Source: Alphaproteobacteria bacterium (GTDB taxonomy: Bacteria > Pseudomonadota > Alphaproteobacteria > SP197). From it: DNA of 64,000 nt. Made by a program: the position numbers and the translations under genes. The notes under the pieces are model-generated. The model searched no databases. It was given only the letters and a program-made list of their open reading frames with translations, and was not told where the DNA came from. Shown in pieces: positions 7,667 to 31,161 of this stretch (within the stretch, counting starts at the first letter, position 1; every line of letters starts with the position of its first letter). Location: positions 1,178,012-1,242,011 of the forward strand of contig OZ219917.1 in NCBI GenBank assembly GCA_964291415.2, in the 5' to 3' direction.

Positions 7667-7983
7667 ATGGTGACGTTGACACCGCTCGATGCGGCCTTCG
7701 GAGCGGAGATTCACGGAGTCCGGCTTGCCGACGATTTCGCCGAGCCGGTCATGCGTACCCTGGTGGACGCGCTTCATGCCCATCGCGTGATCGTCATCAG
7801 GGACCAGGATCTCGACAAGGACCGGTTTCTCCGGTTCGGCAGGCTGTGGGGCGATCCCATCCCCCATGTCCTCGACCACATGCGCATGGATGGCTATCCC
7901 GAACTCATGACCGTGGGCAACACCGAAGAGCGGGACAGGGACGCCAAGATCCGCAACGGCGCCGCCCTGTGGCACACCGACCA
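7667..7983 (+). pseudogene. TauD/TfdA dioxygenase, 5-prime part (split by the integrated element)
   Basis: LTPLDAAFGAEIHGVRL...VIVIRDQDL...ALWHTD, ending at the direct repeat. Confidence 0.92.
7973..7983 (+). repeat. attL core CACACCGACCA
   Basis: Identical to 30595-30605. Confidence 0.92.
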
Positions 7984-8113
7984 CGCACCTTCGGTGCTGA
8001 ACTAAATTTCAACATACTGAAACAACGACGTTTTCTCTCTCACAACTTCACGCCTGGGACGCCGGAACAAGGCGTTTCCGTGCCCAAGGTGCAACAGGGA
8101 AGGGAGAGAAACC

Positions 8114-9238
8114 ATGGCGACGAGCCGCCTTACGCAACATCGCGTCGACACCCTCAAGCCGGGCGGGAAGACCCGTGACATCCGCGACAGGGACCTCAAG
8201 GGTTTCGGTGTTCGGATCCTGTCTTCGGGGCGCAAGCGTTTCTTCCTGCACCGTCAGGTGGACGGTAGGAGGGTCTGGCATGCCATCGGTGACGCCGACG
8301 ACATCACCCTGTCGTGCGCGCGTTCAAGGGCCAAGGCCTTGTTGGCAGCGAGATTGCTTGGCGAAGAAGCGGAGGCAATCGACCACATTGCCTTCGAGGT
8401 CGTAGCCGAGGAAGTCTTCCGCCGCTACGGGCGCCACTGGAAGCCACGCACACTCAGGGTCAATCTCGGATACTACAGAAACCAGATCTTGCCCTGGTTC
8501 AAGGGCATGGCCATTGCCGCCATCACGCGTCCTGATGTTCAGAAGTGGTTCGCCTCGCTTCACTCGACACCGGTGGCTGCCGATCGCTCGGCACCGGTGC
8601 TCTCGGTCATCCTCAGACAGGCCGAGGTCTACGGCTACCGCCCCGAGGGATCCAACCCCTGCAGCGGGATCAGGCGCTATCGCAGGCGGGGCCGTGAACG
8701 ATTCCTGACTTCCGACGAGATACGCCGGTTGAGCCGGGTTCTCGACCTGCATCATGAGCGCCATCTTCTTCAGGTATCCATCGTGCGACTTCTTCTCCTG
8801 ACGGGATGCCGCAAATCGGAAATTCTGACGCTCAGCTGGTCCGAATACCGCGAGGGCAAACTTCACCTCTCGGACTCCAAGACCGGACCGCGCACGGTGT
8901 GGCTGTCGTCCGCCGCACGTCGCATCCTCGATGGCCTGCCGCGGTCAGGGCCATGGGCGTTTCCTTCTCCCCTCAAGAACCGCCATCTGTCGGAGAGCGC
9001 GCTTGACGCATTCTGGTGGGGAGTCCGAGGCGAGGCGGCAATCGACGATGTCCATTGTCATGATCTTCGCCACAGTCATGCGTCGGTGGCCCTCGCTCAT
9101 GGCGAGACGATCCTCACCATCGGCAGGCTTCTCGGCCACAACGATCCGGCGACCACGCTGAAGTACACGCACCTTGCCGATGCAACCATCCACGAGGCTG
9201 CCGAAGCTCTCGCACCCATCCTTGCCGGGGAGGACTGA
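8114..9238 (+). CDS. Tyrosine integrase A of element 2
   Basis: RDRDLKGFGVRI arm domain; TGCRKSEI, DSKTG, HDLRH, LLGH, TLKY. Confidence 0.92.
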   Translation: MATSRLTQHRVDTLKPGGKTRDIRDRDLKGFGVRILSSGRKRFFLHRQVDGRRVWHAIGDADDITLSCARSRAKALLAARLLGEEAEAIDHIAFEVVAEEVFRRYGRHWKPRTLRVNLGYYRNQILPWFKGMAIAAITRPDVQKWFASLHSTPVAADRSAPVLSVILRQAEVYGYRPEGSNPCSGIRRYRRRGRERFLTSDEIRRLSRVLDLHHERHLLQVSIVRLLLLTGCRKSEILTLSWSEYREGKLHLSDSKTGPRTVWLSSAARRILDGLPRSGPWAFPSPLKNRHLSESALDAFWWGVRGEAAIDDVHCHDLRHSHASVALAHGETILTIGRLLGHNDPATTLKYTHLADATIHEAAEALAPILAGED

Positions 9239-9241
9239 ACC

Positions 9242-10393
9242 ATGCCTCGTAGGATGCGCCTCAGTGATCGCAACGTTGCACGGTTGCGTCAGGAGGCAGC
9301 CGAGTACACGGTCTGGGACACAAGGATGGCTGGTCTCGGTGTGCGTATCCGGCCGTCCGGGCAGCGGGCGTTCATCTATCTCGATAGTGGCGGTGGATCC
9401 TCGAAACGCCGCACCCTCGGTCAGACGATGCTGATGACGGTCGAAAACGCGCGCGCCGAGTGCTTTGCCATCCAGTCCGACGGAATTGAAGCCCGGGAAA
9501 CGGTCGCAAAGGTTCCCTTGTTTCGGGAGTTCGTTGCCGGCGTCTGGCGATCAGAATGCTACGAACGTCGAAAGCCCTCTTCCCGCCGCACTGCCGACAC
9601 CATACTTGCAAGCCAGTTGTTGCCGACATTCGGTGACGTGCCACTCGACCGGATCGACCGGCGATCCGTTCACCTCTGGTTTGACCGCTACAGCGTCACT
9701 GCGCCTGGTGGGGCCAACCGCGCGCTCGACGCCTTGCGTCAGATCATGAACCACGCCAAGGCCCACGGCCATATTGAAACCAATCCTGCAAGCCGCATCC
9801 GCCGTAATCCGGTGCGCAGGCTCAACCGGTTCCTTTCCCGCATCGAAATTCGTCGCCTGCACGCTGAACTGGACCGTTGCGCTGCAGAAAATCCGTCACG
9901 TGCAGCGCAGGCAGACATCGTCCGTCTGCTCGCCTGCACCGGTTGTCGACATGGCGAGATCCGAACCTTGAAATGGCAGGAAGTCGGTGTCGGTACGCTC
10001 GATCTCAGCGACAGCAAGACAGGTCCGAGAACGGTGTATCTCAGCCGCAAGGCACGAGAGATAATCGAGCGCCAGCCACGCACCGGCAGTCCGTATGTCT
10101 TTCCCTCGACGAACGATCCGGCACAGCCCGTTTCGCAGAATCACGCATTCTGGCAACTCGTTCGAACACGTGCCGGGATCGAGGATGTGCGTCTTCACGA
10201 CCTTCGTCACACATTCGCCAGCTATGCCGTCATGCAGGGTATTCCGCTGCCGACGGTGGCGCGTCTGCTTGGTCATCGGAAGGTTTCGATGACTCTGCGA
10301 TACGCACACGTTGCTGACCGGGACGTCGAAGCGGCGGCGGAGCGGGTCGGGAAAGCCATGACAGAGATCATGGAATCGGGTGGGGGATCCTGA
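9242..10393 (+). CDS. Tyrosine integrase B of element 2
   Basis: WDTRMAGLGVRI arm domain; TGCRHGEI, DSKTG, HDLRHTFAS, LLGH, TLRY. Confidence 0.92.
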   Translation: MPRRMRLSDRNVARLRQEAAEYTVWDTRMAGLGVRIRPSGQRAFIYLDSGGGSSKRRTLGQTMLMTVENARAECFAIQSDGIEARETVAKVPLFREFVAGVWRSECYERRKPSSRRTADTILASQLLPTFGDVPLDRIDRRSVHLWFDRYSVTAPGGANRALDALRQIMNHAKAHGHIETNPASRIRRNPVRRLNRFLSRIEIRRLHAELDRCAAENPSRAAQADIVRLLACTGCRHGEIRTLKWQEVGVGTLDLSDSKTGPRTVYLSRKAREIIERQPRTGSPYVFPSTNDPAQPVSQNHAFWQLVRTRAGIEDVRLHDLRHTFASYAVMQGIPLPTVARLLGHRKVSMTLRYAHVADRDVEAAAERVGKAMTEIMESGGGS

Positions 10394-10823
10394 GTCGATT
10401 TAATCCAATTTCGTTCGTATGCGATGCGGAATGGTTGAGAAGTGGTTCAACGCGTGGTGATGCCATGCGCTCAACCATGGACTTGGCGTTCGGAGAAATA
10501 GCACACTTCAGCGGCTAACGCTCTCGTTCAAGACCGTCAACTGCGACACCGGTGCATGATTCTTCTTCGGTATCAACTGAGCGTGGATCGCGAGTCGCGT
10601 CATGAATGTCCTTCGGACCGCTGTTCAAGTATTGCTTCTATCAATGCGCGTACGTACCGGGGTGGAGGGCTTTGCACGATTGTACCAACGGCCGGTTGCA
10701 CGACGGCACAGAAGCCGGATGCTACGATGTCAAATGCGAAAGCAGGGTCGAGTTCGAGTGAGTCGAACTCACTCTCGGAATGGAAGCCTGTTTCTAGTAC
10801 TTCCAGCGGTGCGCCCGAGCGTT

Positions 10824-11789
10824 CTATTCTTCGCTCTTTACCACATAGCCATGGTTTCTTTGCGTGGCCTCAAACGCGCTCTTCCCGAACATCGAAACAT
10901 CGCCCTGCATCGCGCGCAGAGTTTCGCTCTGAGCAGCACGATCGAGGTTTTCCATGTAAGACTCCCTAATCCTTTGCAGTTGTCGTTCCGAAATCTGCGA
11001 GTAGCCGTCTGCCGCCAGTCGGGCGCGTCCGAACATGAAGTCGCGCACATCCGACGGCAACTCGATGTCGTGTTGTCCTAACTGTCCGTGCCGAACGTGA
11101 AGCTTCGTTCCCTTCCAGCGGCGTGGGTAACTCATCCCAATGAATCCAAACAGGACAAATCTCCCCATCTTCGCATATGACATCGCCGACTCTCGATCGT
11201 GAGCAACATCAACATCGACTGCGCGAGCGAGATATCGGCTGATGTTGCGTGGTAAATTGGCAATCGAGGTGCCTGCAACTATATCAGTTACAAACATATG
11301 TTGTTCGGGAGGTCCAGGATTGGTCTCATGTCCCAGAAGGAACTGCGACCACTGTCTGAGGGCACCGTTGACGTTCGCCTTGATATGGTCGGGAAATTCG
11401 TCGAGGTAGCCACTGGATGTATACAATCTCAATACCCTCCATGATACGGAGGTCGCGAACTTCAGCATCCATGGACCATAACTGATGCGGCGAACGCTTC
11501 CGCTGTTGAGAGGAGCGAAACAGCTCTCGGCGAACTCTTTCTCCCAGGAAGAGAACAGCTGCTCGCAATCCCTGCACAACATTCGAGGTTTAAGACCATC
11601 CTGGACTCGCCGATTGGGGGATTCGGATGACCGAATATGGCCTGTTGCGGAAGTTCTCCGCAACCATTCGAAGACGAATCTTGGAATGATATGGCTCGCT
11701 TGCAAGTCGGACGATCCGGCGCACAAGGCGCATCGTTCAAAGTCGAGTCCATTGTTACCGATTGAAGAATATAATTTGTGCAACGTCAT
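10824..11789 (-). CDS. Zn-binding HNH-like endonuclease domain protein
   Basis: CALC...SHIIP...LCRDCEQ pattern; AT-richer than flanking host genes. Confidence 0.6.
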   Translation of the reverse strand: MTLHKLYSSIGNNGLDFERCALCAGSSDLQASHIIPRFVFEWLRRTSATGHIRSSESPNRRVQDGLKPRMLCRDCEQLFSSWEKEFAESCFAPLNSGSVRRISYGPWMLKFATSVSWRVLRLYTSSGYLDEFPDHIKANVNGALRQWSQFLLGHETNPGPPEQHMFVTDIVAGTSIANLPRNISRYLARAVDVDVAHDRESAMSYAKMGRFVLFGFIGMSYPRRWKGTKLHVRHGQLGQHDIELPSDVRDFMFGRARLAADGYSQISERQLQRIRESYMENLDRAAQSETLRAMQGDVSMFGKSAFEATQRNHGYVVKSEE

Positions 11790-11956
11790 CTCGCTCGATT
11801 TGGTGATCCGGCTTTTGGCACTTCAGTCGATGAGACTGGATTTTGTCGTGCTATCCTCGAGATCCCGATGCTACCGCTAACGGGTTTGAAGTACCCCGCT
11901 GCACACATAGTGGCAAAACACTCACAGTATTCGACAGCCTCGCCCTTCGTTGTACT

Positions 11957-12364
11957 TCAAGATACAGGTTTGATTTTCATATCCCGAACGTTCAACGGTA
12001 CGAAACACTCCAGAGCCCCGCGCTGTGGTTCTCCCAGTGTCGCGGAGACGGATTCGCAATGGACTGCCTGGGGAAACGTGAACTGTTTAGGCGTGTTCGG
12101 CTCTTGATCCATCTGTGATTCGATACTCCGACGAACATGCTCTGGCAACGCCGCGAGAATCAGCGCCAGTGGCGCCGGGCCAAAATCCAGGGAGAGAGCA
12201 TGACGTTCACCTGCATACATCGCGTCGACCATTAGCGAATACTGACCCGGGCGGCCGAGTGCATCGAATCCCCATATTGGGAATCCGTAGAAGTAGTGTT
12301 CCATGTGCGGGCTGTCGTAGCCGTCCTTTTTCAATCGCGTTCCGTAATCTGGTCGTAGCGTCAT
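11957..12364 (-). CDS. Hypothetical protein
   Basis: 135-aa ORF with upstream AAGGA and protein-like composition; no family recognised. Confidence 0.6.
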   Translation of the reverse strand: MTLRPDYGTRLKKDGYDSPHMEHYFYGFPIWGFDALGRPGQYSLMVDAMYAGERHALSLDFGPAPLALILAALPEHVRRSIESQMDQEPNTPKQFTFPQAVHCESVSATLGEPQRGALECFVPLNVRDMKIKPVS

Positions 12365-12840
12365 GGTTCGTGTTCCTTACCCGCGTTTGAGCGTGCATTG
12401 TATTGCGCCCCATGGGGAATTATTCGGGTTTCCACTGAGTTGTGGCCTGATTGAGGATTTACTCCATGCTTACGGAGTGTACGCCGAAGGACCGCAAGTT
12501 TGAAGCTTTGGACGGCGCTGGTTCACCGGTCGTTGCGCCAATGGCCGGATGACTTCGGACAGCGGTGTCTTGTTGGTGTGCGAGGCCGGTTGCCTGCTCG
12601 ACATCCCCGCCCCGGTTGCGCCATGTTTTGTCGGTCACCGCATTCTTTGTCTGCCAGGCATGTCCTGGAGACTCTTGATGCTACTCGGATGGTAGTGATA
12701 CGAGGATCTCGACGATCATGGTCGGCTGCCCGAAGACAGCGACCTTGCGTAGACTTGCGGACGTCCGCAGGTGAACGGTGCGATGCCTCCGCAGGAATGC
12801 CGACGGAGTCACGGACTGTCCGCCTCGAGGACACTGAACC

Positions 12841-12933
12841 GACTGGAGCCGGGTGCCAGGTGACCGGGTGCGAGCGGTGTTCCGCTTCGAGGGCGGCACG
12901 ACAGTGGACGTAGACCTGGTCGACTGTTGCTGA
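12841..12933 (+). pseudogene. HigB/RelE toxin remnant
   Basis: DWSRVPGDRVRAVFRFEGGTTVDVDLVDCC* resembles the HigB C-terminus; lies directly upstream of higA. Confidence 0.7.
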
Positions 12934-12952
12934 CTGGAAAGGACCCCTGACC

Positions 12953-13267
12953 ATGAGCGAGATTGCAGGCGATCGAATCGGCCCCACCCGGAACCCACCG
13001 CACCTTGGCGAACTCATCCGCGAGAGCATGGACGATGTGGGTCGGAACGCAACCGAAACGGCGGCACGGCGTGGCTGCGAGCGCGGAATGCTGTCGCGCC
13101 TGATGAACGGCAAAGCGGGTGTGTCGGCGAACATGGCGCTGGCGCTGGTGGATATCGGCTGGGGAACTGCCGAGTACTGGATGCGGATGCAGGCGAGCTT
13201 CGAGCTTGCGCAGGTGCGCCAAGGTCGGACTGCCGAAGCGCGACACGCAGGCGCGCTACAGGCATGA
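12953..13267 (+). CDS. higA: HigA antitoxin (Xre HTH)
   Basis: NPPHLGELIRE...LSRLMNGKAGVSANMALAL...AEYWMRMQASFELAQ. Confidence 0.85.
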   Translation: MSEIAGDRIGPTRNPPHLGELIRESMDDVGRNATETAARRGCERGMLSRLMNGKAGVSANMALALVDIGWGTAEYWMRMQASFELAQVRQGRTAEARHAGALQA

Positions 13268-13382
13268 TCGAGACTCGCGCCGGGGCGGACGACCGGGGCA
13301 CTGTCCGGGCGGCTGTCCTTCATCAGGTTTCGGCCAACGGCACGCCGTCCGGGGCGCGGCGCAGAGCGGGCGGTATAGCCTG

Positions 13383-16187
13383 ATGCGCCTGTCGTGGAAC
13401 GAGGTTCGCGCTCGCGCCGCCGCCTTTGCCGAGGACTGGAAGGACGCGGCTTACGAGAAGGGGGAGACGCAGAGTTTCTACAACGCCTTTTTCGACGTGT
13501 TCGGGGTGCGGCGTCGGAGTGTCGGGCGCTACGAGGAGCATGTTAAGAAGCTCGACAACAGTTCGGGTTTCATCGACCTGTTCTGGCCGGGCGTGCTGCT
13601 CGTCGAACAGAAAAGCGCCGGGCGCGATCTCCGCAAGGCTTACGAACAGGCCGGGGACTACTTCGACGCGCTGCCGGAACACGAGCGCCCTCGTTACATC
13701 CTGGTGAGCGACTTCCAGACCTTCGAGCTTCACGATCTTGACGAACGGGAAGCCGTCGCCTTCGCGCTCGCGGATCTGCCCGCCCATGTCGAATCGTTCG
13801 GCTTCATCCTCGGCGTGCAGCGCCGGACGTTCCGCGACCAGGACCCGGCGAACATTGAGGCCGCGGAACTGGTCGGACGGCTGCACGATGCGCTCGCCGA
13901 TGCCGGACACCGGGGTCACGATCTGGAACGCTTCCTGGTGCGAGTCGTGTTCTGCATGTTCGCCGACGACACCGGGATCTTCGAACCGCGCGATATCTTT
14001 CTCGACTTCATCGAGACACGCACCAGCGAAGACGGGGCCGATCTCGGACCGTGGCTCGCGCAACTGTTCGAAGTGCTCGACACTCCGGAGGACGAGCGAG
14101 CGGCGACTCTTGACGAGGACCTTGCGCGCTTCCCCTACGTCAACGGTGATCTCTTGAAGGGGCACCTGCGGACGTTCTCGTTCAACGCGGCAATGCGCGG
14201 GGCATTGCTCGACGCCTGCCGCTTCGACTGGTCGAACATCTCGCCCGCGATCTTCGGCGCGCTGTTCCAGTCGGTCATGGACCCGGCGGAACGCCGAGCC
14301 CAGGGGGCGCATTACACGACCGAGAAGAACATACTCAAGGTGATCGAGCCGCTGTTCATGGACGACCTGCGTGCTGAGTTTGAGCAGGTACGCAAGCGCC
14401 GCCGTGGCCGGCTTGCTGCACTCCACCAGTTCCAGGCAAAGCTTGGCAATCTGACGTTCTTCGACCCGGCCTGCGGCTGCGGCAATTTCCTCATCATCGC
14501 GTACCGGGAATTGCGGTTGCTGGAAATCGAGGTCATCCGGGAGATACGGGACGCGACCGCCGCGACCGATCAGGCGGTACTCGATGCGGCATGGCAGTCA
14601 GTAGTGGACGTGGATCAGTTCTACGGGATCGAGCTTGGCGAGTTCCCGACCCGCATCGCGGAGACCGTGCTGTGGATGATGGACCACATCATGAACAACC
14701 GGCTGAGCCTTGAGTTCGGTCAGACCTTCGTTCGTATCCCGCTAGAGAAGTCGCCGCATATCGTCTACGGCGACGCGCTGGAAACAGATTGGTCGGGTCT
14801 GCTGCCGTCGGACGACTGCTCCTTCGTGCTCGGCAATCCGCCGTTCGTGGGTTCGAAGTACCAGACGGCAGAGCAGCGTGCGCAGGTGCGTGGAATCGCG
14901 GCGCTCGGCAAGGGCGGTGGCACGCTCGATTACGTCGCCGCGTGGTTCATCAAGGCGGGAGAGTATCTGAAGGGCAGCTGCGCTCGGGTTGGCTTCGTCG
15001 CGACCAACTCGATCACGCAGGGCGAGCAAGTCGCGCAGCTATGGCCGGTCCTGTTCGGACGCTGCAAGCTGGAGATCGCCTTCGCGCACCGGACTTTCGC
15101 GTGGGGATCGGACGCGCGCGGCAAGGCGCATGTGCATGTCGTCATTCTCGGCCTCGACCGGCGGAACGCTGCACGAGCAGAGAAGCGGCTTTTCAGCTAT
15201 CCCGATATCAACGGTGATCCGGAAGAGAGCAGCCATTCGGCGCTGTCGCCGTACCTGTTCGACGCGGGCGGGTTGTCGGACCCGCATTTGGTGGTCCGGG
15301 AGGAAAGTGCACCGATCAACGGTATGCCGCAGCTTCTGACTGGCTCACAGCCCATCGATGGCGGCAAGTACATATTCGATGCAGCGGAACGTGGCGCGTT
15401 TCTGGAGGTGGAGCCGGAAGCCGCGCCCTGGATTCGACCGTTCATCGGCGCGCGGGAATACTTGCAGGGTGGAGAGCGGTGGATTCTGGCGCTGCACGAC
15501 GCTCCGCCGGCAGTTCTGGCGCGACTGCCGCGCGTGCGGGAGCGGATCGCCGCCGTTCGGGCCTTTCGGCAACGAAGCCAACGCAAGTCCACACTCAAGC
15601 TGGCCGAAACCCCGACGCTCTGGCAGATCAACGTCGTTCCCACGGCTCCGTTTCTAGTGATTCCGGAGGTCAGTTCGGAGCGACGGGAGTATGCTCCCAT
15701 CGGCTGGTTGGAGCCGCCTACGATACCCAGCAACCTCGTTCGCATCTTGAGCAACGCAACTTTGTCGAACTTCGCGCTGCTGACCTCGGCCATGCATATG
15801 GCGTGGCTGCGCCACATCGGCGGGCGCCTGAAGAGCGATTACCGCTATTCCATCGGTCTCGTCTACAACACGTTCCCGCCGCCGCCCAAGGGAAGGGACT
15901 TGTCGAAGTTAGAGCCACTCGCCCAAGCTGTCCTGGATGCACGCGCTGCCCATTCGGGCGCAACGCTCGCCGACCTCTACGATCCGGACCTGATGGCGCC
16001 GAACCTTCGCCGGGCACATCAGAAGCTCGATCGTGCGGTGGATCGGCTCTACCGGCGCTCGGGGTTCGCATCCGAGCGGGAACGTGTTGAATACCTGTTC
16101 ATGCTCTACGAGAGACTGCTCGCTCCGTTGACCGACGCGACAAAATCGAAGGGGCGCAGGCGTAAAGTCCAGGGTCGTGCGACATGA
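13383..16187 (+). CDS. MmeI-like type IIL restriction-modification enzyme
   Basis: LSWNEVRARAAAF, FIDLFWPGVLLVEQKS (PD-ExK), GAHYT, FDPACGCGNFL, GNPPF, GGRLKSDYRYS, TLADLYDP. Confidence 0.92.
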   Translation: MRLSWNEVRARAAAFAEDWKDAAYEKGETQSFYNAFFDVFGVRRRSVGRYEEHVKKLDNSSGFIDLFWPGVLLVEQKSAGRDLRKAYEQAGDYFDALPEHERPRYILVSDFQTFELHDLDEREAVAFALADLPAHVESFGFILGVQRRTFRDQDPANIEAAELVGRLHDALADAGHRGHDLERFLVRVVFCMFADDTGIFEPRDIFLDFIETRTSEDGADLGPWLAQLFEVLDTPEDERAATLDEDLARFPYVNGDLLKGHLRTFSFNAAMRGALLDACRFDWSNISPAIFGALFQSVMDPAERRAQGAHYTTEKNILKVIEPLFMDDLRAEFEQVRKRRRGRLAALHQFQAKLGNLTFFDPACGCGNFLIIAYRELRLLEIEVIREIRDATAATDQAVLDAAWQSVVDVDQFYGIELGEFPTRIAETVLWMMDHIMNNRLSLEFGQTFVRIPLEKSPHIVYGDALETDWSGLLPSDDCSFVLGNPPFVGSKYQTAEQRAQVRGIAALGKGGGTLDYVAAWFIKAGEYLKGSCARVGFVATNSITQGEQVAQLWPVLFGRCKLEIAFAHRTFAWGSDARGKAHVHVVILGLDRRNAARAEKRLFSYPDINGDPEESSHSALSPYLFDAGGLSDPHLVVREESAPINGMPQLLTGSQPIDGGKYIFDAAERGAFLEVEPEAAPWIRPFIGAREYLQGGERWILALHDAPPAVLARLPRVRERIAAVRAFRQRSQRKSTLKLAETPTLWQINVVPTAPFLVIPEVSSERREYAPIGWLEPPTIPSNLVRILSNATLSNFALLTSAMHMAWLRHIGGRLKSDYRYSIGLVYNTFPPPPKGRDLSKLEPLAQAVLDARAAHSGATLADLYDPDLMAPNLRRAHQKLDRAVDRLYRRSGFASERERVEYLFMLYERLLAPLTDATKSKGRRRKVQGRAT

Positions 16188-16275
16188 TCCATTCTCTTGG
16201 AGGTGAGAGCGCTGACGGTCAGCAGACCAGGATCTGCCTGGACGCATTGAGAACTATGCCAATGCGGGAACGAAA

Positions 16276-16458
16276 ATGACAGACCTTTCCGAAATCATTG
16301 GAGGCCTGATCGCCACCGGAAAGGAGGGCGACCACTGGGACTTCAAACGTGATTCGCATACCAAGACAGGCGACTTGATCAAGGACATCATGTGCCTTGC
16401 CAACACGCCCCGACATGCTGGAGACCGCTATATCGTCTATGGTGTCGACGACTGTTAG
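16276..16458 (+). pseudogene. AlbA_2/Schlafen-like domain fragment truncated by an IS end
   Basis: EGDHWDFKR...KDIMCLAN...YIVYGVDD; the stop codon lies inside the IS inverted repeat. Confidence 0.75.
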
Positions 16459-17067: not shown

Positions 17068-17339
17068 ACTACAGTAGAGGAGCCCGCAACGAATGAAGAA
17101 CGCTACTTGTCGCTTCGCACCCTCACTCTTCGGAGACTTTACCGGGAAGTCTGGCGTTCTCCCATCCGTGTAGCTTGTCACGAAGTTCGGATATGCCTAA
17201 GTTGGCAACTCCGAAGTCAGGGACGCCGCACGGCGCATGGAGGCGAGAATCGTGACGACCAGGAAGGGCGTTCCAGTCACGTTCCGGTCATAAACTGGAG
17301 CAAACCAGCACCACTAGTGGGAATGCGGGCTAGTTCAGT

Positions 17340-21506: not shown

Positions 21507-21633
21507 GGTGGCAGCCGAGTATGTGGTCGAACCAGCATCGAACAAATACGTTCCATTGCGTTCCCTGCACATGGTGCGTCAGTTTCCATTACCATGGGCC
21601 AACGGAGGATACACTGCGGTGGCGTACATTGAG

Positions 21634-22368: not shown

Positions 22369-22395
22369 GCCGGTCTTCGCAAGACTGGCAGCGTT

Positions 22396-23289: not shown

Positions 23290-23351
23290 CGGCGTTTCCT
23301 TCGTGTCTGAGGGCGCTACCCGAAGCGGCGCGGTGCGCTACAATGCGGACC

Positions 23352-26300
23352 ATGGTCGCCACCGTCACCGCCATCACGTCCGCTTCGGCGACGGTGCACT
23401 ACTTCGAACAGGAGGGATACTACGCCAGGAACTCTCCCGAGCACCGCCGGGCGAGCTTCTGGCACGGCGCCGCGGCCCGGGCTCTCGGTCTCGGCCGCCA
23501 CGTCAAGCCGAAGATCTTCGAATCCATCCTCGCCGGCCATGTTCCCGGCACCGGCCAGCGCCTGGGCCGGGCGCGGGACGGCGAGCACCAGCACCGCCCG
23601 GGCGTCGACATCACGTTCTCGGCGCCGAAGTCGGTGTCGCTGCAGGCCCTGGTGAGGGGAGACGAACGGGTCATCAGGGCTCACGACGAGGCGGTGCGCA
23701 GCACCCTCGACATGATCGAGCGGGACTTCCTGGTGACGCGGGTTCACAACCCGGCGACGGGCAGACGCGAGCGCCGGCGGGCCCAGGGCATGGTGGCGGG
23801 CACCTTCCGGCATCTGGCCAGCCGCAACCTCGATCCCCAGCTCCACACGCACAGCGTGGTGGCCAACATGACCCGCGGCCCGGACGGGTCCTGGCGCAGC
23901 CTCGACACCGGCGGGCTCCACTCCCGGCGCCTGCTGATCGGCGCCCACTATCGGGGCGAGCTGGCGCGGCGATTGATGGATCTCGGCTACGAGCTCGAGG
24001 AGACGATGATCGGGCCGGTGCCGGGGTTCGAGATCGCCGGCTGGGAGAAGGAGACGCTCGACGCCTTTTCGACGCGCAGGAAGGAGATCGTCGAGCACGT
24101 CGAGGAGAAGGGCTGGGACTACAACGCGGCGACGGCCCAGGCGGCGACGCTGGCGACGCGGCGGCGCAAGAACGAGCCCCACCGGGAGATCCTGACCGGC
24201 ATGTGGCGCGAGCGTGCCGAATATCTGGGCATCGACCTCAGGCGCCGGCGCCTGACGCGCTCCGCGCCGCCCCCGGCACCGTCGGCCCTGGAGGTTGTGG
24301 CGCGGGTTGCCGAACACCTCGAGGAACGCCAGTCGGTCATCGCCGTCCACGACCTGGTGGCGGGCGCCCTCGCCCACGCACCGGGCCGTCACGACATGGC
24401 GGAGATCATGAGCGCCATCGACCGGCTGCGCCGTGACGGCCATCTCGTCGACGCCATCCGCTCGCGCGGCGGACCCTCCCTCGTCACGGACCGGGCGCTC
24501 AAGGCCGAGCGCGAGGTCGTGCGCCGCATGAAGGAGGGTGTGGGCGCCACGGCGGCGATCGTGCCGGCCGAAGCCGTCGAGCAGAAGCTCGCGGGCGCCA
24601 CCCTCACGCCGGGTCAGCAAGAGGCTCTCCGTCTCATCCTGGGCGAGGGCGATTCAATCGTCGGCGTGCAGGGGTTTGCAGGCACGGGGAAGACGACGAT
24701 GCTGCGCGAGGTCGTCGACCTCGCCGGTGCCGAGACCATCGTCGGTCTGGCGCCCTCGTCGAGCGCCGCCCGGACGCTTGCGCGGGAGGCCGGCATCGCC
24801 ACCCGGACCCTGCAGGGGTTCCTGGTGCGCCACGGCGATCTCTCGCCAGAGACGGCGGGGTCCTTCGCCGGCAAGGTGCTGGTGGTGGACGAGATGTCGC
24901 TCGCCAGCACCGCGCAGACGAGATCGCTCATGAGGATCGCCGATCACCTCGGCGCGGCCAGGCTGGTGATGGTGGGCGACAGCCGGCAGCTGCGCGCCGT
25001 CGAGGCGGGCCAGCCCTTCCGCCAGCTGCAGCAGGCGGGGATGGCGACCGCGGTCATGGACGACATCCGCCGCCAGCGCAGCCCGGGCCTCAAGGCCGCG
25101 GTTCTGGACGCCATTGCCGGCAAGCCCGGCGCAGCCCTGACGAAGCTCGGCGCCGACGTCCTCGAGGTCGACCACGAGGACCTCGGAACCAGTGCGGCGC
25201 GCATCTGGCTGGCGCTCTCGGCCGACGATCGCGCCGAGACGGCGCTGATGGCCCCCACCCACGTGCTGCGCCGGGAGATCAATGCCACCGTCAGGGACGG
25301 CCTCCGCGAAGAGGGCGTGCTCCGCGGGCGCCGCGTCACGCTCCCCACGCTCGTCAACCTCTCCATGACCCGGGCCCAGAAGCGCGAGATCCGCAACTAC
25401 CGCGAGGGCGACGTGGTGGTCTTCCACAACGACCTCCGCCACTACCGGGTGAGGTCGGGCGACATCTGCCCCATCTCGAGCATCGACGGCGAGCGTCTCC
25501 TGCTCGGCCACTCGGACGGCAAGGCCCGCCACGTGAAGCCCGATTCGGATGTCCGCTACCGCTACGACGTCTTCGAGAGCGACGCAATCGATCTCGAGGC
25601 CGGCGACCGCATCCGCTGGACCCGCAACCACAACCCGAGCGGCCTCGTCAACGGCGCCACCGCGACGGTCGAGAGGATCGGGAAGACGTCACTCGTCCTC
25701 AAGACCGACGAAGGCCGGCGCCTCGAGATGGAACTCGACGATCCGCGGCTGCGCCACATCGCGCACGCCTATGCGACGACGGTGCACGCGGCCCAGGGCC
25801 TCACCCGCGACAAGGTGATCGCGGTTCTCGATTCGGGCCACGGGCAGCTGGCCAACCAGCAGACCTTCTACGTCGAGATCAGCCGGGCCCGTGACGAGGC
25901 GATCATCGTCACCGACAACCGCGAGCAATTGGCCGAGACCCTGGAGGAGAACACGGGCGAGGTGCTGACCGCGCTGGAGGCGGTGGGCGAGAGCCTCGAC
26001 GAGGGCGCGATCGCCCGGCGCGTGCCCGAGAAGGAGAGCGTCGCGGACCTCGGCGTGGAACCCCTGGCGGTCGGCCGCTGGAAGCGCGCATGGAACCCGG
26101 ACCTTGCGCCAGACGAGCCTGCGGCGCTTGCGCAGCTGAAGACGCTGGCCGCCATGAGGGAATCACCCGATGAACGGGTGGCGGCCTGGGCCTCCGCGGA
26201 GTGGGCCCGCGAGAGCGCCCGGGCGGTCGCGCATGTCGAGGCGCGCCTGGCCGACGCCCTCGAGCGCCGGCCGGCGCTCCGGGTCGGCGAGGGAACGGAT

Positions 26301-27641
26301 GCCGCCGGCTACGCCGCCTGGCGCTTCGCGGCGGAGTCGGGCCTGGCTGCGGCGCGTGAGCTGACGGGCATGACCGAGGCGCCGGATCTCGCCGGACTCG
26401 CCGCCCGTGCCGAGTCGCTGCTGGCCGGTGACGACCGCGTCCTTGCCCGGCAGGCGACGGACGACCATGCCGCGGCCTGGGAGGCGCGCTGGCACGCCCT
26501 GGAACGACGCGCCGGCGAGGCAGGGCTGTCGGTCCACGACCACGGCGAGGCGTCCGGCGCCGTCGATCACGCGCGGCGGATCCTTGCGGATCCTGCCCTG
26601 GCCGGCGGCAGCCGGGACCGGATTGCCGCAACCGTCGAGGCCTTCGATGCCCGCGCACGAGCCCGCCGGCGGGCCGACGCATGGCTTGCCGCGTGGCAGG
26701 GGCGCCACCCCGCCGACCCGGCGGAGGCGATGATCGGCGCTGGCCGCGTGCTCGCTGCCGATCCCGCCCTGCCCGCGGCGCTGAAGTCCCGTCTCGATCG
26801 TGCCATCGGCCGCCATGAACGCCTGGCCCGGGAGGAATCCCTGACGGCAGCCGCGGAGACCGCGGAGCCTTCGATCGACGGCGCCCGGCCGGGCGCGCCG
26901 GTGACGCCCGAACCGGTGACGAAAGACGCCGCACCGCCCCCGCCGCCCATCGTCGAGGACGAACGGGAACGCGAGGCGCGGCGCGAGCGGGCCCGTCAGG
27001 CGGCCAACCGGGCGCGCCGGCAGGCCGACGACGCCCGGCGCCGGCTGGAGGACTGGGAGACGCACCTCGCCCATGGCCGCCTCGGTCACGTGATCGTCCT
27101 GGCGGACGCGGCGGCACGGAATCGCGATCTCGGCACGCAAGACCGCCGCCGTCTCGAGGAGGCGACGGCCCTGGCCCGCCGGCGCCTCGAGACCCACGAG
27201 GCGTATCGGGACTGGCAGAATGCCTGCCGGGCTCATGACACTGCCGCGAAGTCGCAGGGGCGCCACGCGCTCGACGACCCCGGCTGGCGGGACCTCGCGG
27301 CCCGCGCGGGCCGCCTTGCGGAGAACCCGGATTCGAGCGCCACGGCGCGCCGGGCGGCAGCGGAGTGGCTCGCGGCGTCGAAGGACATGGCGGAGGCCCG
27401 CCTGGCTTTCATCGAAAGGCGTCTGGCGTGGGAACGTGTGGAGGCCGAAGCGCAGGCTGCAGGACGGAACCCGCTCGATCTTCCCGAGGCCGGCGAGGTG
27501 GTGGCATGGCTGCGGGAGAACCCGGAAAGCGCCGGCGCCACCGAGGGCGAACGGCAGGCCATGAAGGATGTGGTGGCCCGTCACGAGGCCCGGCAGGCCG
27601 AACGCAAGAGCCGTGACCGCGGGTTCAGCTGGCGACTGTAG
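23352..27641 (+). CDS. MOBF (TrwC/TraI-like) relaxase-helicase with C-terminal extension
   Basis: HYFEQEGYY, DITFSAPKSVS, HLASRNLDPQLHTH (HUH), GFAGTGKTT, VDEMS, GDSRQL, YATTVHAAQG. Confidence 0.95.
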   Translation: MVATVTAITSASATVHYFEQEGYYARNSPEHRRASFWHGAAARALGLGRHVKPKIFESILAGHVPGTGQRLGRARDGEHQHRPGVDITFSAPKSVSLQALVRGDERVIRAHDEAVRSTLDMIERDFLVTRVHNPATGRRERRRAQGMVAGTFRHLASRNLDPQLHTHSVVANMTRGPDGSWRSLDTGGLHSRRLLIGAHYRGELARRLMDLGYELEETMIGPVPGFEIAGWEKETLDAFSTRRKEIVEHVEEKGWDYNAATAQAATLATRRRKNEPHREILTGMWRERAEYLGIDLRRRRLTRSAPPPAPSALEVVARVAEHLEERQSVIAVHDLVAGALAHAPGRHDMAEIMSAIDRLRRDGHLVDAIRSRGGPSLVTDRALKAEREVVRRMKEGVGATAAIVPAEAVEQKLAGATLTPGQQEALRLILGEGDSIVGVQGFAGTGKTTMLREVVDLAGAETIVGLAPSSSAARTLAREAGIATRTLQGFLVRHGDLSPETAGSFAGKVLVVDEMSLASTAQTRSLMRIADHLGAARLVMVGDSRQLRAVEAGQPFRQLQQAGMATAVMDDIRRQRSPGLKAAVLDAIAGKPGAALTKLGADVLEVDHEDLGTSAARIWLALSADDRAETALMAPTHVLRREINATVRDGLREEGVLRGRRVTLPTLVNLSMTRAQKREIRNYREGDVVVFHNDLRHYRVRSGDICPISSIDGERLLLGHSDGKARHVKPDSDVRYRYDVFESDAIDLEAGDRIRWTRNHNPSGLVNGATATVERIGKTSLVLKTDEGRRLEMELDDPRLRHIAHAYATTVHAAQGLTRDKVIAVLDSGHGQLANQQTFYVEISRARDEAIIVTDNREQLAETLEENTGEVLTALEAVGESLDEGAIARRVPEKESVADLGVEPLAVGRWKRAWNPDLAPDEPAALAQLKTLAAMRESPDERVAAWASAEWARESARAVAHVEARLADALERRPALRVGEGTDAAGYAAWRFAAESGLAAARELTGMTEAPDLAGLAARAESLLAGDDRVLARQATDDHAAAWEARWHALERRAGEAGLSVHDHGEASGAVDHARRILADPALAGGSRDRIAATVEAFDARARARRRADAWLAAWQGRHPADPAEAMIGAGRVLAADPALPAALKSRLDRAIGRHERLAREESLTAAAETAEPSIDGARPGAPVTPEPVTKDAAPPPPPIVEDEREREARRERARQAANRARRQADDARRRLEDWETHLAHGRLGHVIVLADAAARNRDLGTQDRRRLEEATALARRRLETHEAYRDWQNACRAHDTAAKSQGRHALDDPGWRDLAARAGRLAENPDSSATARRAAAEWLAASKDMAEARLAFIERRLAWERVEAEAQAAGRNPLDLPEAGEVVAWLRENPESAGATEGERQAMKDVVARHEARQAERKSRDRGFSWRL

Positions 27642-27875
27642 GCCGGTTGCGCTCCCGGGACCTCTTCCACGCGCCGGGCGGCGCAGTTCTCCCGGATCGC
27701 CTGATCGAGCTGACGGACCATGGTTTCGGGACGCCCTCGACGTCACCCCGGTCACGGCAGCACGCTGGCTCATGACCTTCCAGGAGCGTACGATGCGCCG
27801 GCGCGCCATGCTGCAACAGACGCGAACCGCGAAGGAGGGGGCAAGGACAGCCTCACCCACCAGGAGCATCGCCTC

Positions 27876-28412
27876 ATGACCATTCTGTCGTCTCTGTTGG
27901 ACTGCGAGCCCAGGCGACCGCGAGCCGGGTCCGCTGACTGGGATAGCGGGCCGCCGCCATCGCGCTGCCCGGGCGTGACCCGCGCAGGGTGTCTGATCCT
28001 GGTGCGAGCGGTCGACACGAAGTGGCCGCACGCCGAAGCATTTGTCGGAGGCACGAGGCTGCCGGGCTACCTGGACGGCATCGATGTCGGCACCGTGCTG
28101 GTCCACCGCGCGGGCGATTCCGCCATGCCGCTTGACGAGAGACCGTGGCAGGCCGGCAGGGCCCACCTCGACGGCGTCCGCTGGGAGGAAAAGACCTGGC
28201 CGGTCGAGGACTTCATCGCCTTCCGGGATCACGTCGCCAGTCTCATGGAGTTCACGGTTCCCGGCGACGAGCGCCCGCAATCACGCAACCTGCCCGTGGC
28301 GAGCGACGCCACCTCGCCCGACCGCGACGTCGCCGAATCCCGGACCGCCATCCCGGGGCTGCGTCAGGCTTCGCAGAGGCGCTCGCCGAACGGCACAAGG
28401 AGGGAACCATGA
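27876..28412 (+). CDS. Hypothetical protein, tandem paralog 1
   Basis: Shares RPWQAGRxHLDGVRWEEKTW...DFIAFRDHVASLMEFTVPGD with the next ORF; start uncertain. Confidence 0.6.
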   Translation: MTILSSLLDCEPRRPRAGSADWDSGPPPSRCPGVTRAGCLILVRAVDTKWPHAEAFVGGTRLPGYLDGIDVGTVLVHRAGDSAMPLDERPWQAGRAHLDGVRWEEKTWPVEDFIAFRDHVASLMEFTVPGDERPQSRNLPVASDATSPDRDVAESRTAIPGLRQASQRRSPNGTRREP

Positions 28413-28807
28413 ACGACCGACCTCGCCCGGCATACCTCCAGCGCACGATCCGCGAGGGGTACATCATCCTCGTCGACGCGGTCGACACCTCCTGGACCAA
28501 CGGCGGCGCCTTCGAGGGCGACGACACCCTGCCGGATCAGTTGGCCGACGTCCATGTCGGCACCGTCCTGGTGCGCTGCCCCGTCGACCCCGCCATTCCG
28601 CCAGGGAAGAGGCCATGGCAGGCCGGTCGGGTGCACCTCGACGGCGTCCGCTGGGAAGAGAAGACCTGGCCCCGCAAGGACTTCATCGCCTTCCGGGACC
28701 ACGTCGCCAGCCTCATGGAGTTCACGGTTCCCGGCGACGTGCGCTGGGAGTTCCGCAACCTGCCCGTGGTGAGCGATGCGCCGCCGGCTGGCCGCGACGT
28801 CGCCTGA
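28409..28807 (+). CDS. Hypothetical protein, tandem paralog 2
   Basis: AGGAGG RBS, ATGA overlap, paralog at 470-bp offset. Confidence 0.75.
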   Translation: MNDRPRPAYLQRTIREGYIILVDAVDTSWTNGGAFEGDDTLPDQLADVHVGTVLVRCPVDPAIPPGKRPWQAGRVHLDGVRWEEKTWPRKDFIAFRDHVASLMEFTVPGDVRWEFRNLPVVSDAPPAGRDVA

Positions 28808-29170
28808 TCCACCTTCACCGCCCTCGCCCGCCTCGAGAGACGGAGAGCCCCGCAGGCCACGCGGTGTCGCCGCCCGCCGCCGCCCACCGCCGAGTGCGAT
28901 GGCCGGGGCGGCCGAGGGTGATTGACGGGCGATCATCGGCGCCTCGCCGCGAAACGCCTCTCTACGGGCTTTCGTGGCGCTCTCAGGCGCGACACGCATC
29001 GTGCTGCAGCGATCGGTCTTTCCGCGGCATGGACGGCCCGCCGTCCCGCACTCTCAGCCGGTGGCCGCCGCGTCACAAGAACCGTGAGGCAGGCCATGCC
29101 GGATGCCGTGTCGCGCCTGGGATACCCGGCGGCCGTGGCAGCGGCCCGGCCGCGGGATCCGCTGGTGGCT

Positions 29171-29599
29171 TCAGGTGCGGTTGCGCGCGTACACCTCTTC
29201 CTCGATCCTGGCGGCGCGGCTGTCCTGCAGGACCTGTTCGAGCAGGCGGACCATCGTCCCGTGATGGCCGGTGCGGGTCATCGCGTCGAGCCTGACCTCG
29301 AAGAGCACCCTCAGGGTCTCGGCGAAGCCCGGCGTCCCGTCCGTCCCCTCCAGCGCCCGGACGGTCTCGGCGGTGGCCTTGACGGTCTCCAGCAGGGTTC
29401 GCTGTTCTTCCGGGCCGAGGACGAGGCGGGGCGGGTTCCTCACCTTCGACGGCGGGTTGCGGTTGAGCGCGCGATCGACAAGGAGCTTCGACATCGAGAC
29501 GCCCTCGCGGTCCGCAATGGCGCGGATGCGCTCGCGCTCGAGACGGCTGCACGAGATCGAGTGCATGGTGGCCCTCTCCTCGACGCGCCGGCCCGTCAC
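29171..29599 (-). CDS. Ribbon-helix-helix protein 3 (MobC-like)
   Basis: HSISCSRLERERIRAIADREGVSMSKLLVDRAL; GTGA overlap. Confidence 0.75.
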   Translation of the reverse strand: MTGRRVEERATMHSISCSRLERERIRAIADREGVSMSKLLVDRALNRNPPSKVRNPPRLVLGPEEQRTLLETVKATAETVRALEGTDGTPGFAETLRVLFEVRLDAMTRTGHHGTMVRLLEQVLQDSRAARIEEEVYARNRT

Positions 29600-29919
29600 G
29601 GTCCTTCTCTCCCGGCATCGCGCTGCGCCTGGAAGTCCCGGGCGGCGAGATAGAGGAACGACAGAGCTTCCATGGCCGTGACGTCGCTCCCCGGCAGGGG
29701 TTCCATCAGGTCCTCGAGAAGAAGCAGGGTCCGGTTCACCCGGTTGAGGAGGTCGCGCTGCTCCGCTTCCGTGAGCGTCAGGCGCATGTCGTCCTCGTCC
29801 TCCAGAGCACAGGCGACGAAAAAGCGCGAGATCGTCATCTTCGCCTCCTTCGCCCGCCGGCCGATCTCCGCCCAGTCGCTCGGCCGGCAGCTGACGCTGA
29901 ACTGCTGGTGGCGTCTCAT
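29596..29919 (-). CDS. Ribbon-helix-helix protein 2 (MobC-like)
   Basis: FSVSCRPSDWAEIGRRAKEAKMTISRFFVACAL; ATGA overlap. Confidence 0.75.
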   Translation of the reverse strand: MRRHQQFSVSCRPSDWAEIGRRAKEAKMTISRFFVACALEDEDDMRLTLTEAEQRDLLNRVNRTLLLLEDLMEPLPGSDVTAMEALSFLYLAARDFQAQRDAGREGP

Positions 29920-30248
29920 GTGCCCGGCTCCGTCCCGTCCATGCGGGCCTCGGCTTCCAGCAACGCCTCGACCTCGTCGCCGATCGCCCGCCAGGCCTCG
30001 CCCTCGCCGGCGCGCTCGAAGCGGTATTGCTCGATGCGGGCGAGCACCATGAGGCGGTGGGCAAGGCGCCACTGCAGGTCGGCCGGCAGGCCCTCCGGTC
30101 GTGGTGGCGTTGTGGCCAGGGCCCGCTGCACGACGTAGCGGGACTTGGGCATGTCGAGAGCCTTCGCGTTCTCGTCGATCCGCGCCCACTCGCTGTCCGT
30201 GGCCATGATGGTGCGCGCCTTGCGGCGCGGATCCTTCGCCTCCATCAT
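29916..30248 (-). CDS. Ribbon-helix-helix protein 1 (MobC-like)
   Basis: RTIMATDSEWARIDENAKALDMPKSRYVVQRAL. Confidence 0.75.
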   Translation of the reverse strand: MMEAKDPRRKARTIMATDSEWARIDENAKALDMPKSRYVVQRALATTPPRPEGLPADLQWRLAHRLMVLARIEQYRFERAGEGEAWRAIGDEVEALLEAEARMDGTEPGT

Positions 30249-30557
30249 GGGCTCATGCGCCGGCTGACGGAACGACACAGGGAAGCCGTGACGGCGTGTC
30301 GGACCGGGAAATCGGGAGATTCAACGGTCCAACAACACCATGGGTTCCATGTGTCCCCATTGTGCGGCTTTGACGTGGATGGCGGGTGTTGTGCGGTACC
30401 TGGGCCATGCTGGCAATGCTACGGAATTTTTCCGCAACTGCAACTATGAGACGACAGAAATGTCTTCTTGTATACGCCTTGTGTCGTCGTCAGGGGTTGA
30501 CGGGGTCATGTTTATCACGTAGTTACAGCAGCATGGAGAGAAGGCGGAAGCGTAAGG

Positions 30558-30586
30558 TTGTTTGATATATGTGTGATTGTCACTAT
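30558..30586 (+). promoter_or_regulatory. Candidate outward-facing promoter at the element right end
   Basis: TTGTTT-N17-CACTAT with TGn extended -10, in an AT-rich tract 8 bp before attR. Confidence 0.35.
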
Positions 30587-30594
30587 TGGTCTGT

Positions 30595-30605
30595 CACACC
30601 GACCA
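30595..30605 (+). repeat. attR core CACACCGACCA
   Basis: Identical to 7973-7983. Confidence 0.92.
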
Positions 30606-31161
30606 GTCCTACGAGGAGGTGCCGGCGAGCGCCACCATGCTCTATTCGATCCTGGCGCCCCGTGCAGGTGGCGAAACGCAGTTCTGCGACATGGCGGGGG
30701 CCTATGATTCCCTCGACGCCGCCACCAGGGAGAGGATCGACTCCCTCGAGGTGGCGCACAAGTACGGACGTGGCCGCCGCCTTGCGGGCGAAGCCACGGT
30801 CAATCCGATCATCAACGACGACCAGGACCGCCGGGTGCCGCCGGTCCATCACCCACTGGTGATGCGCCATCCGGTCACCGGCAGGAAGACACTCTACGCA
30901 ATCGGTCACGGAGCCTACGCCATCAGGGACATGGCCTCTAGGGAGGCCGGTGCGTTGCTCGATTCGCTGAAGGCCCATGCGTTGCGCGAGGAGCATATCT
31001 ATCGTCACCACTATCGCCCGGGCGATCTCGTCATCTGGGATACCCTGCAGACGATGCATGCGGCGAGCCCCATCGCCTTTGCCACGTCGCAGGAGAACGC
31101 CCGCCTTCTCTGGCGGATCAGCGTGCGCGGACTGCCGCAGGTCCTGTCACGGACCGTCTGA
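30595..31161 (+). pseudogene. TauD/TfdA dioxygenase, 3-prime part
   Basis: HTDQSYEEVPASATML, GGETQFCDM, HPLVMRHPVTGRKTLY, GDLVIWDTLQTMHAA, RLLWR. Confidence 0.92.

Follow-up and report, generated by a model that had tools for sequence, protein, structure and literature searches.

The window analyzed here is a 64,000-nt stretch of contig OZ219917.1 (positions 1,178,012 to 1,242,011, forward strand) from the alphaproteobacterial assembly GCA_964291415.2. Within it, a 22.6-kb integrative mobilizable element (IME) interrupts a gene for a TauD/TfdA-family Fe(II)/2-oxoglutarate dioxygenase, and an 11-bp direct repeat, CACACCGACCA, marks both of its ends. The arrangement is very probably the outcome of a recent or polymorphic, sequence-driven insertion by a promiscuous family of IMEs. 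The element would have entered the gene by tyrosine-recombinase site-specific recombination, with crossover at a 10–11-bp identity, ACACC plus GACCA, between the attachment site of the element (attP) and the chromosome; this identity is now duplicated at both ends. Two integrases, Int1 and Int2, would catalyze integration, with the five variable bases acting as the homology-checked overlap. The gene is split after the Asp codon of a His-Thr-Asp motif, and an excision event at the repeats would rebuild it to the base. There is nothing unusual about the locus as such: that the in-frame split falls at a catalytic motif is chance at the level of DNA words and not the sign of a designed switch. The insertion comprises the following features.

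7667..7983, + strand: N-terminal fragment of the TauD/TfdA-family Fe(II)/2-oxoglutarate dioxygenase gene, 105 codons through His-Thr-Asp (PF02668, E 1.2e-13)
7973..7983, + strand: copy of the 11-bp repeat at the left attachment site (attL; core ACACC + N5 = GACCA)
7984..30594: element body, 22,611 bp (22,622 bp with one repeat copy)
30595..30605, + strand: copy of the 11-bp direct repeat at the right attachment site (attR)
30595..31161, + strand: C-terminal part of the dioxygenase gene, running from the second copy of the His-Thr-Asp codons through the stop codon (PF02668, E 2.5e-40)

The repeat is present in exactly two copies in the window, at 7973–7983 and 30595–30605 (+). Shuffles gave an expectation of 0.02 matches, and two matches were reached in 1 of 100 shuffles. 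Both copies read CAC ACC GAC (His-Thr-Asp) in the TauD reading frame. Joining 7667–7983 to 30606–31161 yields 873 nt, with 290 codons, a terminal stop and no internal stops. An earlier note, made from the letters of this DNA alone, had reported the repeat, its in-frame His-Thr-Asp and a stop-free joined frame of 290 aa, and was correct in every detail that could be checked. By their Pfam matches, the two fragments are complementary halves of one domain: the N fragment covers positions 3–104 and the C fragment positions 100–266 of the 267-position PF02668 (TauD) profile, which scores above its cut-off in both halves, and a W-H-T-D motif sits at the joint. The C fragment and the joined frame are 98.9% identical over 190 aa (tblastn). 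Past 7983, the reading frame of the N fragment continues through seven element-encoded codons to a TAA ending at 8005. The split gene is presumably inactive. Neither half shows decay, with 10 window-unique codons among 290 (6 synonymous, 4 not) and no indels. One of the nonsynonymous window-unique changes, E126A, falls at a position invariant in 10 orthologues.

An intact orthologue (L003:1195-2064) matched solved taurine, phenoxypropionate and sulfate-ester dioxygenases with E-values of 1e-33 to 1e-19. It scored 131.8 bits against the taurine dioxygenase equivalog NF007104, below the cut-off of 313, and taurine is therefore not assignable as substrate. The split gene is surrounded by a catabolic cluster (window 3600–7617 and 31165–32977). 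Upstream are genes for a class-III aminotransferase, a TmpA-type 2-trimethylaminoethylphosphonate dioxygenase (4862–6013; 539 bits versus a cut-off of 400), NIPSNAP and an isochorismatase-family hydrolase; downstream are GFA and an outer-membrane beta-barrel protein.

We searched the right flank of the element against 40 relatives. Near full-length matches came from nine genomes of the same genus and from another contig of the same assembly, C3, which gave 10 orthologous loci; weaker partial matches in G002, G010 and G011 were left out. Each of the 10 holds one uninterrupted gene to which the joined frame aligns over its full length without a stop (90.3–96.5% aa identity). The core is found once per locus, within ctgtggCACACCGACCAgtcctac; the exact 11-mer is present in eight of these empty loci, and the other two carry one or two synonymous differences. 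The alignment of the window with C3 stops at 7983 and resumes at 30595, the overlap being the 11-bp core only. Judged against C3 and the nine relatives, the breakpoints of the element lie exactly at the repeat. These data bear out two proposals of the earlier note: that the empty site (attB) would have the context given above, and that excision would restore the gene, since the joined frame is collinear with its orthologues at 10 of 10 loci.

Split genes that are restored by excision are known from skin in sigK, SPbeta in spsM, the nifD element and the comK prophage. Elements of this type occupy the same site across strains and are excised on a developmental or infection cue. The present element is like them in that a gene is split with short direct repeats and would be rebuilt by precise excision. 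It is unlike them in that all 10 of the related loci compared have an empty site and its family inserts promiscuously; with the same site occupied in none of the 10 other orthologous loci, the conserved occupancy of the skin/sigK type was not seen.

Evidence for the empty site also comes from the sampled population. Contig C3 (180 kb) is a collinear second copy, 92–98% identical, of the path that runs from the start of contig C4 through C5 to the end of C1, the contig of the window. Other contigs cover 168,111 of its 180,020 bases, and C3 lacks both the element and island A, a second insertion of the same family described below. Taken with a contamination estimate of 8.99%, this points to C3 as a second haplotype in a mixed sample. 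Because the assembly (G000) is a strain mixture, copy counts in it are to be read with care.

Of the words sampled from the attL region, a fraction of 0.79 is present in one public sequencing run, X1; the other holders of such words are labelled as sponge or coral-reef metagenomes or have coded organism names. Word depths in X1 were 21–39 for the flank, 10–13 for island A and 5.2–5.7 for the element, and the same contrast was seen among its zero-difference contigs (a 622-base flank contig at depth 26.7 versus a 3246-base element contig at 5.2); these are depths of assembled contigs and not copy numbers, which counts against leaning on them. Over 513 and 3246 bases, element contigs of X1 show no difference from the window. 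At the TauD site, one X1 contig and one X5 contig run through 7983 into GTCCTACGAG and so represent the empty site. At island A, the empty-site contig of X1 carries the window's own left flank, not that of C3. The insertion is polymorphic, with both the empty and the occupied allele represented in the population sampled.

Several other points likewise weigh against our interpretation. The assembly is a mixture of strains, with a contamination estimate of 8.99%. The empty-site contig extends only 10 bases past the core, where the window haplotype and the 95%-identical C3 are not distinguishable. For X1, no contig bridging attL is listed. Of the two junctions that the earlier note had proposed to look for, attB was found (on C3 and in the X1 and X5 contigs), whereas attP, the circle junction, was seen neither in the assembly (0 occurrences) nor among the loose ends listed for the runs; ongoing excision is thus unproven, although this absence is no evidence against excision. 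Two results of the family comparisons below fall on the same side: 2 of 11 fetched elements gave no repeat within 40 kb, and two more TauD insertions among 72 sites exceed the random-site null, some gene-family bias being possible.

These points bear on whether the junctions are real. Chimeric joins between strains could have placed the element in this gene in the assembly with no cell carrying it there. Such an artefact would be in keeping with the mixture of haplotypes (C3 duplicates 168 of 180 kb at 92–98% identity), with the lack of an attL-bridging contig and with the flank of X1, whose contigs show the C3 allele at each of the 11 places where they depart from the window. X1 may not be the exact source, or its flank contig may be a haplotype consensus. 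Yet both junctions lie exactly at an 11-bp repeat that obeys ACACC+N5, with the terminal palindrome in place and the integrase about 130 bp inside, and a chimeric join would not produce such an arrangement at both ends. Moreover, the element contigs of X1 match the window without a difference. We regard an artefact as extremely improbable.

The gene content of the element is as follows.

8114..9238, + strand: int1, tyrosine integrase with an Arm-DNA-bind_3 N-terminus (PF00589, PF13356, PF14659)
9242..10393, + strand: int2, paralogous tyrosine integrase (Pfam; 37% identical to int1)
10824..11789, − strand: cargo open reading frame (ORF) of 321 aa, without family (weak HNH_2 match, E 0.045)
13119..16187, + strand: MmeI-family type IIG restriction-modification enzyme (five MmeI Pfam domains, E 4e-25 to 4.5e-81)
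17340..18308, − strand: PP2C-type protein phosphatase (PF13672, E 7.1e-44)
18311..18988, − strand: von Willebrand factor A (VWA) domain protein (PF00092, E 9.3e-12)
19082..20767, − strand: Ser/Thr protein kinase domain protein (PF00069, E 5.6e-9; weak PADLOC kinase matches, PD-T4-6, E 1.6e-8)
21361..22368 (+) and 22396..23289 (−): two family-less ORFs upstream of the relaxase gene (48% identical counterparts at the same position in the element of G010:C2)
23343..27641, + strand: TrwC/MobF-family relaxase-helicase, 1432 aa (PF08751, E 9.8e-79, plus AAA_30)
29916..30278, − strand: NikA-like ribbon-helix-helix protein (PF21983, E 1.8e-4, below the gathering score)

Int1 and Int2 both keep the catalytic R, HxxR, H and Y residues, as their alignment shows, and exceed the PF00589 cut-off; the relaxase scores 271.9 bits against the NCBIfam MobF model (cut-off 100). 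The NikA-like gene is a probable relaxosome accessory gene and belongs to the family backbone. No mating-pore (type IV secretion system) or coupling-protein family matched any of the 20-plus element ORFs scanned. By its gene set the insert is an IME, and its mobilization is predicted from these genes. The whole assembly has four full-length TrwC genes and one coupling protein (C4:511889); VirB4 (PF03135), the one mating-pore family searched for there, was not found. When the whole element was compared with plasmids by megablast, four records gave matches of 70–74% to MmeI-like methyltransferase genes, and none held a related element.

The cargo is lower in GC (0.51–0.59) than the relaxase region (0.70–0.77). 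All five MmeI domains (PF20464, PF20465, PF20473, PF20466 and PF20467) are above their cut-offs and in order on one polypeptide, which scores 1158.9 bits as PADLOC REase_MTase_IIG. They start only near residue 90, and translation therefore probably begins at a codon downstream of 13119. The genes for the PP2C phosphatase, the VWA protein and the Ser/Thr kinase are contiguous; we take this triad to resemble the 'TerY-P' triad, for which PADLOC gives weak kinase matches only. These assignments agree with the earlier note, which had described two integrases, a MOBF relaxase and defence-type cargo. For the 321-aa cargo ORF, no Pfam, NCBIfam or PADLOC family was found at default thresholds, and family searches with the ORFs at 21361–22368 and 22396–23289 also gave no match. 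At window position 10948, within the 321-aa ORF, the X1 contigs are one base short, which may reflect an assembly indel or a strain difference.

The element is one of many. Of 22 other genomes of the genus, 14 have Int1 homologues (E ≤ 1e-60), against none of 10 genomes from the four other genera of the same taxonomic family. An even sample of the class gave an Int1 match (E ≤ 1e-70) in 6 of 400 other genomes, and one of these six, G330 (family f155), has two loci with the same end structure. Matches per genome number 16 in G014 (all 56–80% identical), 17 in G006, 16 in G019 and 25 in G011 (many partial). An Int1-based search for related loci in genome contigs returned one locus, identical in sequence to a G019 contig.

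Every int1 homologue is preceded, at a distance of about 130 bp, by a conserved terminus, in which an unrelated flank is followed by ACACN, five to six variable bases and CGCACC-N3-GGTGCT. The 88 palindrome-bearing loci reduce to 75 distinct flanks, and 73 of these have ACACN at the set spacing (ACACC in 63, ACACG in 7, ACACA in 2 and ACACT in 1). A position weight matrix built from 67 non-TauD ACACC/ACACG sites holds almost no information outside the ACACS core. The term 'dioxygenase-targeting', used in the earlier note, does not describe a rule of the family; its insertions occupy dozens of unrelated sites that have only ACACN and five bases in common.

When the right end was searched at the nucleotide level against the genus, only 3 of 22 other genomes gave a match. 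Right ends being poorly conserved, we located ends by their repeats, in 11 elements fetched to at most 40 kb each. Perfect 10–12-bp repeats starting with ACACC, 10–35 kb apart, were found at both ends of nine of these, the window's element included. Island A (14-bp repeat, ACACA+N5) and an element of G014 (10-bp repeat) also fit the target rule. Both ends are resolved in 11 elements, and all 11 have perfect repeats of at least 10 bp, each containing ACACN plus five bases. The int1-int2 tandem is present in 10 of 10 fetched elements and also in the G014 element; among bounded elements, TrwC is encoded by six of eight, and a NikA-like homologue lies near the right end of seven of eight, as it does in G014. 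These genes form the backbone; everything else, cargo included, differs between elements.

The five-base segments differ between sites of integrases that are 88–91% identical, and they differ by one base for an integrase pair that is 98.9% identical. Some similar flanks carrying an identical segment are found in more than one species (L086/L123, L019/L081 and L084/L130/L118). From these patterns we infer that the ACACS core is recognized by protein and that the five-base overlap is homology-checked, carried within a lineage and occasionally changed. Each lineage of the family would require ACACN and bring its own five-base 'address', and would therefore insert into many unrelated genes.

Three other observations concern members of the family. 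At G005:C2:917930-952905 (L101, L102), two int1 copies 98.9% identical face each other 33 kb apart, have five-base segments that differ at one base, and may represent tail-to-tail elements or a composite. At G000:C1:522922-523270 there is an 80% identical copy of the left end of the element and the start of int1; its flank is a variant one, and the integrase frame seems to differ by a single base near its start. It may be a decayed family member. Island A (34.5 kb; G000:C1:1147056-1181532) reaches into the window at 1–3534, with its 14-bp repeat CCTCTTGTGTAGCA at 3520–3534. It encodes an int1-like gene (2292–3398, −; 55% identical to Int1), an int2-like ORF (1051–2553, −) and TrwC (C1:1153213), and its empty site is present on C3 and in an X1 contig. 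Window positions 1–1302 are 100% identical to G000:C4:472734-474035 and contain a XerC-type tyrosine recombinase gene (66–1217, +). The gene lies directly against the int2-like ORF of island A or overlaps with it, and the stretch may be a nested insertion of mobile DNA.

Three other mechanisms were considered and set aside. Relaxase-only (HUH) integration does not require identical five-base segments, yet these occur in 11 of 11 resolved elements; in addition, the integrase pair is universal, whereas TrwC is absent from two of eight bounded elements. Carry-over of coupling sequences, as for Tn916, CTnDOT or the elements called SEs, would leave non-identical ends. Target-site duplication of the DDE type does not fit a conserved backbone without a transposase.

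The crossover region is flanked by a further conserved feature.

7985..7997, + strand: conserved palindrome GCACC-TTC-GGTGC beside the crossover region (single match in the window)

Across 79 aligned related left ends, 99.2% of cells of the palindrome are paired. Its inner pair, which the selection pattern left free, shows five double changes that keep pairing. The arms GCACC/GGTGC are the same as the IR2 arms of the R388 nic-site oligonucleotide, and TrwC of R388 recognizes the proximal arm and the single-stranded bases that follow (PMC4176350). R388 thus shares with the present family a TrwC-family relaxase and five-base arms, but the loop is 4 nt in R388 (same paper) versus 3 nt here. Beyond the hairpin, neither strand matches the R388 nic region. 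The top strand there is conserved across the family (T, then A at +3), and the bottom strand presents the variable five bases. Two small elements without TrwC keep the palindrome. On an excised circle, the hairpin would be situated about 330 bp upstream of the NikA-like gene. We infer that the palindrome is a transfer-origin (oriT IR2-type) hairpin set against the attachment core; as an alternative, it is a candidate symmetric protein-binding site.

What brought the element to a TauD gene? The target word is present in this gene because the His-Thr-Asp-Gln codons read CAC ACC GAC CA. The family inserts by its ACACN+N5 word, and the TauD insertion is therefore sequence-driven. The 10-mer ACACCGACCA occurs 19 times in the assembly, as the two ends, the C3 copy and 16 unoccupied sites, none of the latter in a TauD gene.

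TauD genes at other family insertions were sought in three screens, which found 0 of 30 other loci (29 distinct), 1 of 40 (10 repeated from the first screen) and 1 of 48. A weak TauD match at L075 (E 0.005) was disregarded, as it lies away from the junction. L041, L107 and L131 carry CACACCGAC, with 27–46 stop-free codons in frame and no TauD similarity. This leaves two more insertions at H-T-D codons of TauD-family genes among the 72 other distinct ACACC/ACACG sites. In G014 (L091), a 37,793-bp element with Int1, Int2, TrwC and NikA-like homologues splits a different TauD paralogue; the joined frame (293 aa) is stop-free and 88% identical to the intact G000 paralogue. The H-T-D that was hit there is 14 residues upstream of the W-H-A-D metal motif and is non-catalytic. 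In G006 (L124), the insertion is exactly at W-H-T-D, and its right end runs off the contig.

We compared these counts with random expectation. TauD H-T-D codons make up 5 of 18,086 ACACC/ACACG sites in G000 (0.03%, or 0.11% when weighted by the position weight matrix). The probability of at least two TauD cases among 72 is 2e-4 to 3e-3, rises to 0.06 under a null five times more generous, and is ∼0.02 when any position in any TauD gene is counted (∼0.33% of the genome); these values treat sites that are not phylogenetically independent and use paralogue counts from G000 only. The TauD bias among family insertions is suggestive only.

tRNA genes are the landing sites of other integrases, and the family could similarly have evolved a preference for TauD His-Thr-Asp codons (CAC-ACS-GAY) as an always-available, cheaply disrupted landing pad. 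Such a preference would account for three independent H-T-D insertions in three paralogues, three species and three integrase subfamilies (the window, L091 and L124) and for the lower of the above probabilities, and targets would be plentiful, with at least 17 TauD-family paralogues in G000. Still, only 2 of the 72 other sites are in TauD genes, one of them off the catalytic motif. The three other CACACCGAC sites are outside TauD genes, and the probability climbs to 0.06 or ∼0.02 as the null is widened, for sites of shared ancestry. We consider an evolved preference unlikely. Because one TauD insertion sits at a non-catalytic HTD, the evidence indicates that the attractor is a DNA word and not enzyme chemistry.

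The same evidence bears on the two origins offered in the earlier note, a recent insertion or a reversible switch. Under the latter, the element would be an evolved on/off device in the dioxygenase gene, excised when a condition triggers it. This idea gains something from the intact gene that precise excision would rebuild, from the undecayed halves, from empty-site molecules in the same sample set and from the second family member that restorably splits another TauD paralogue. But the orthologous loci are unoccupied (0 of 10), the family is found at ∼70 unrelated sites, and the element is a complete, transfer-competent-looking IME, not a domesticated remnant. No attP was seen in the assembly or among the listed loose ends of the runs. 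The second TauD case, at a non-catalytic HTD, also runs counter to a switch, the position being explained by the DNA word and not by function. A regulated switch is therefore very improbable, and nothing beyond restorability speaks for it; insertion, by comparison, has the 10 empty loci, the empty-site contigs of public runs and the undecayed halves in its favor.

Insertion by a promiscuous IME family has parallels among known elements, which we compared by description and not by sequence. In its behavior the family comes closest to the mobilizable transposons described with tyrosine integrases of low specificity, among them the MTnPi elements, which have two integrases. According to the review PMC5704250, IMEs and mobilizable transposons such as Tn4555, Tn5520 and MTnPi1-3 of Prevotella intermedia likewise encode their own integrase or integrases and a relaxase, have no mating-pore genes and occur in multiple copies at different genomic locations; the MTnPi elements carry a duo of tyrosine integrases, as in the present family. 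They differ, on the same account, in preferring AT-rich sites and reaching 2–6 copies, compared with ACACN plus five bases, perfect repeats and 16–25 integrase copies here. The review also states that no canonical IME known in 2017 encoded MobF, and the present family carries a MOBF relaxase.

SEs, too, have two tyrosine recombinases at one end and can move to more than one site (PMC9345347). As described there, their order is intA-CDS2-intB-CDS4, with 19-bp terminal inverted repeats, 6 bp carried from the previous site and no relaxase, whereas the present family has adjacent int1 and int2, perfect repeats of at least 10 bp, a terminal palindrome and a TrwC relaxase. Relatives of Tn554 (PMC3414803) differ in gene order and end structure and lack perfect repeats. 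Literature on tandem-integrase or low-specificity elements yielded no match to this family, within a scope that left out most subscription journals.

A bolder reading is conceivable, though we hold it only tentatively. This set of tandem-integrase, MOBF-relaxase mobilizable elements may be a family not described before that behaves as a programmable transposon, in which a protein-recognized ACACS and a portable five-base overlap form a 10-bp address, insertions are scarless and reversible and reach 16–25 copies, and the attachment core abuts or overlaps oriT. TauD genes would then be a recurrent landing pad, because CAC-ACS-GAY encodes His-Thr-Asp.

One observation concerns the far end of the window. 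The region 58473–64000 contains a long open frame (59476–63999, +) that is still open at the contig end, the window end being the end of C1. This frame has internal repeats of ∼300 bp (78–84% identity) and no Pfam match. Copies of the region, 92–99% identical, lie on C4 at ∼792.6–796.3 kb and 970.4–974.5 kb.

The anatomy of the element, its empty sites, the target rule shared across the family and the gene's capacity to be restored are established by these comparisons. At this locus, polymorphism exists at the level of whole islands within one natural population, with defence cargo in a minority of cells. The target rule (ACACN plus five bases, a perfect repeat of at least 10 bp and a terminal palindrome) delimits such islands to the base in these genomes, and the family accounts for a large share of the integrase load of this genus. 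It is also a tractable system for studying the division of labor between two tandem tyrosine recombinases and the drift of overlap specificity. If the family were indeed programmable in the sense above, its insertions would amount to reversible knock-outs of redundant dioxygenases within a natural population.

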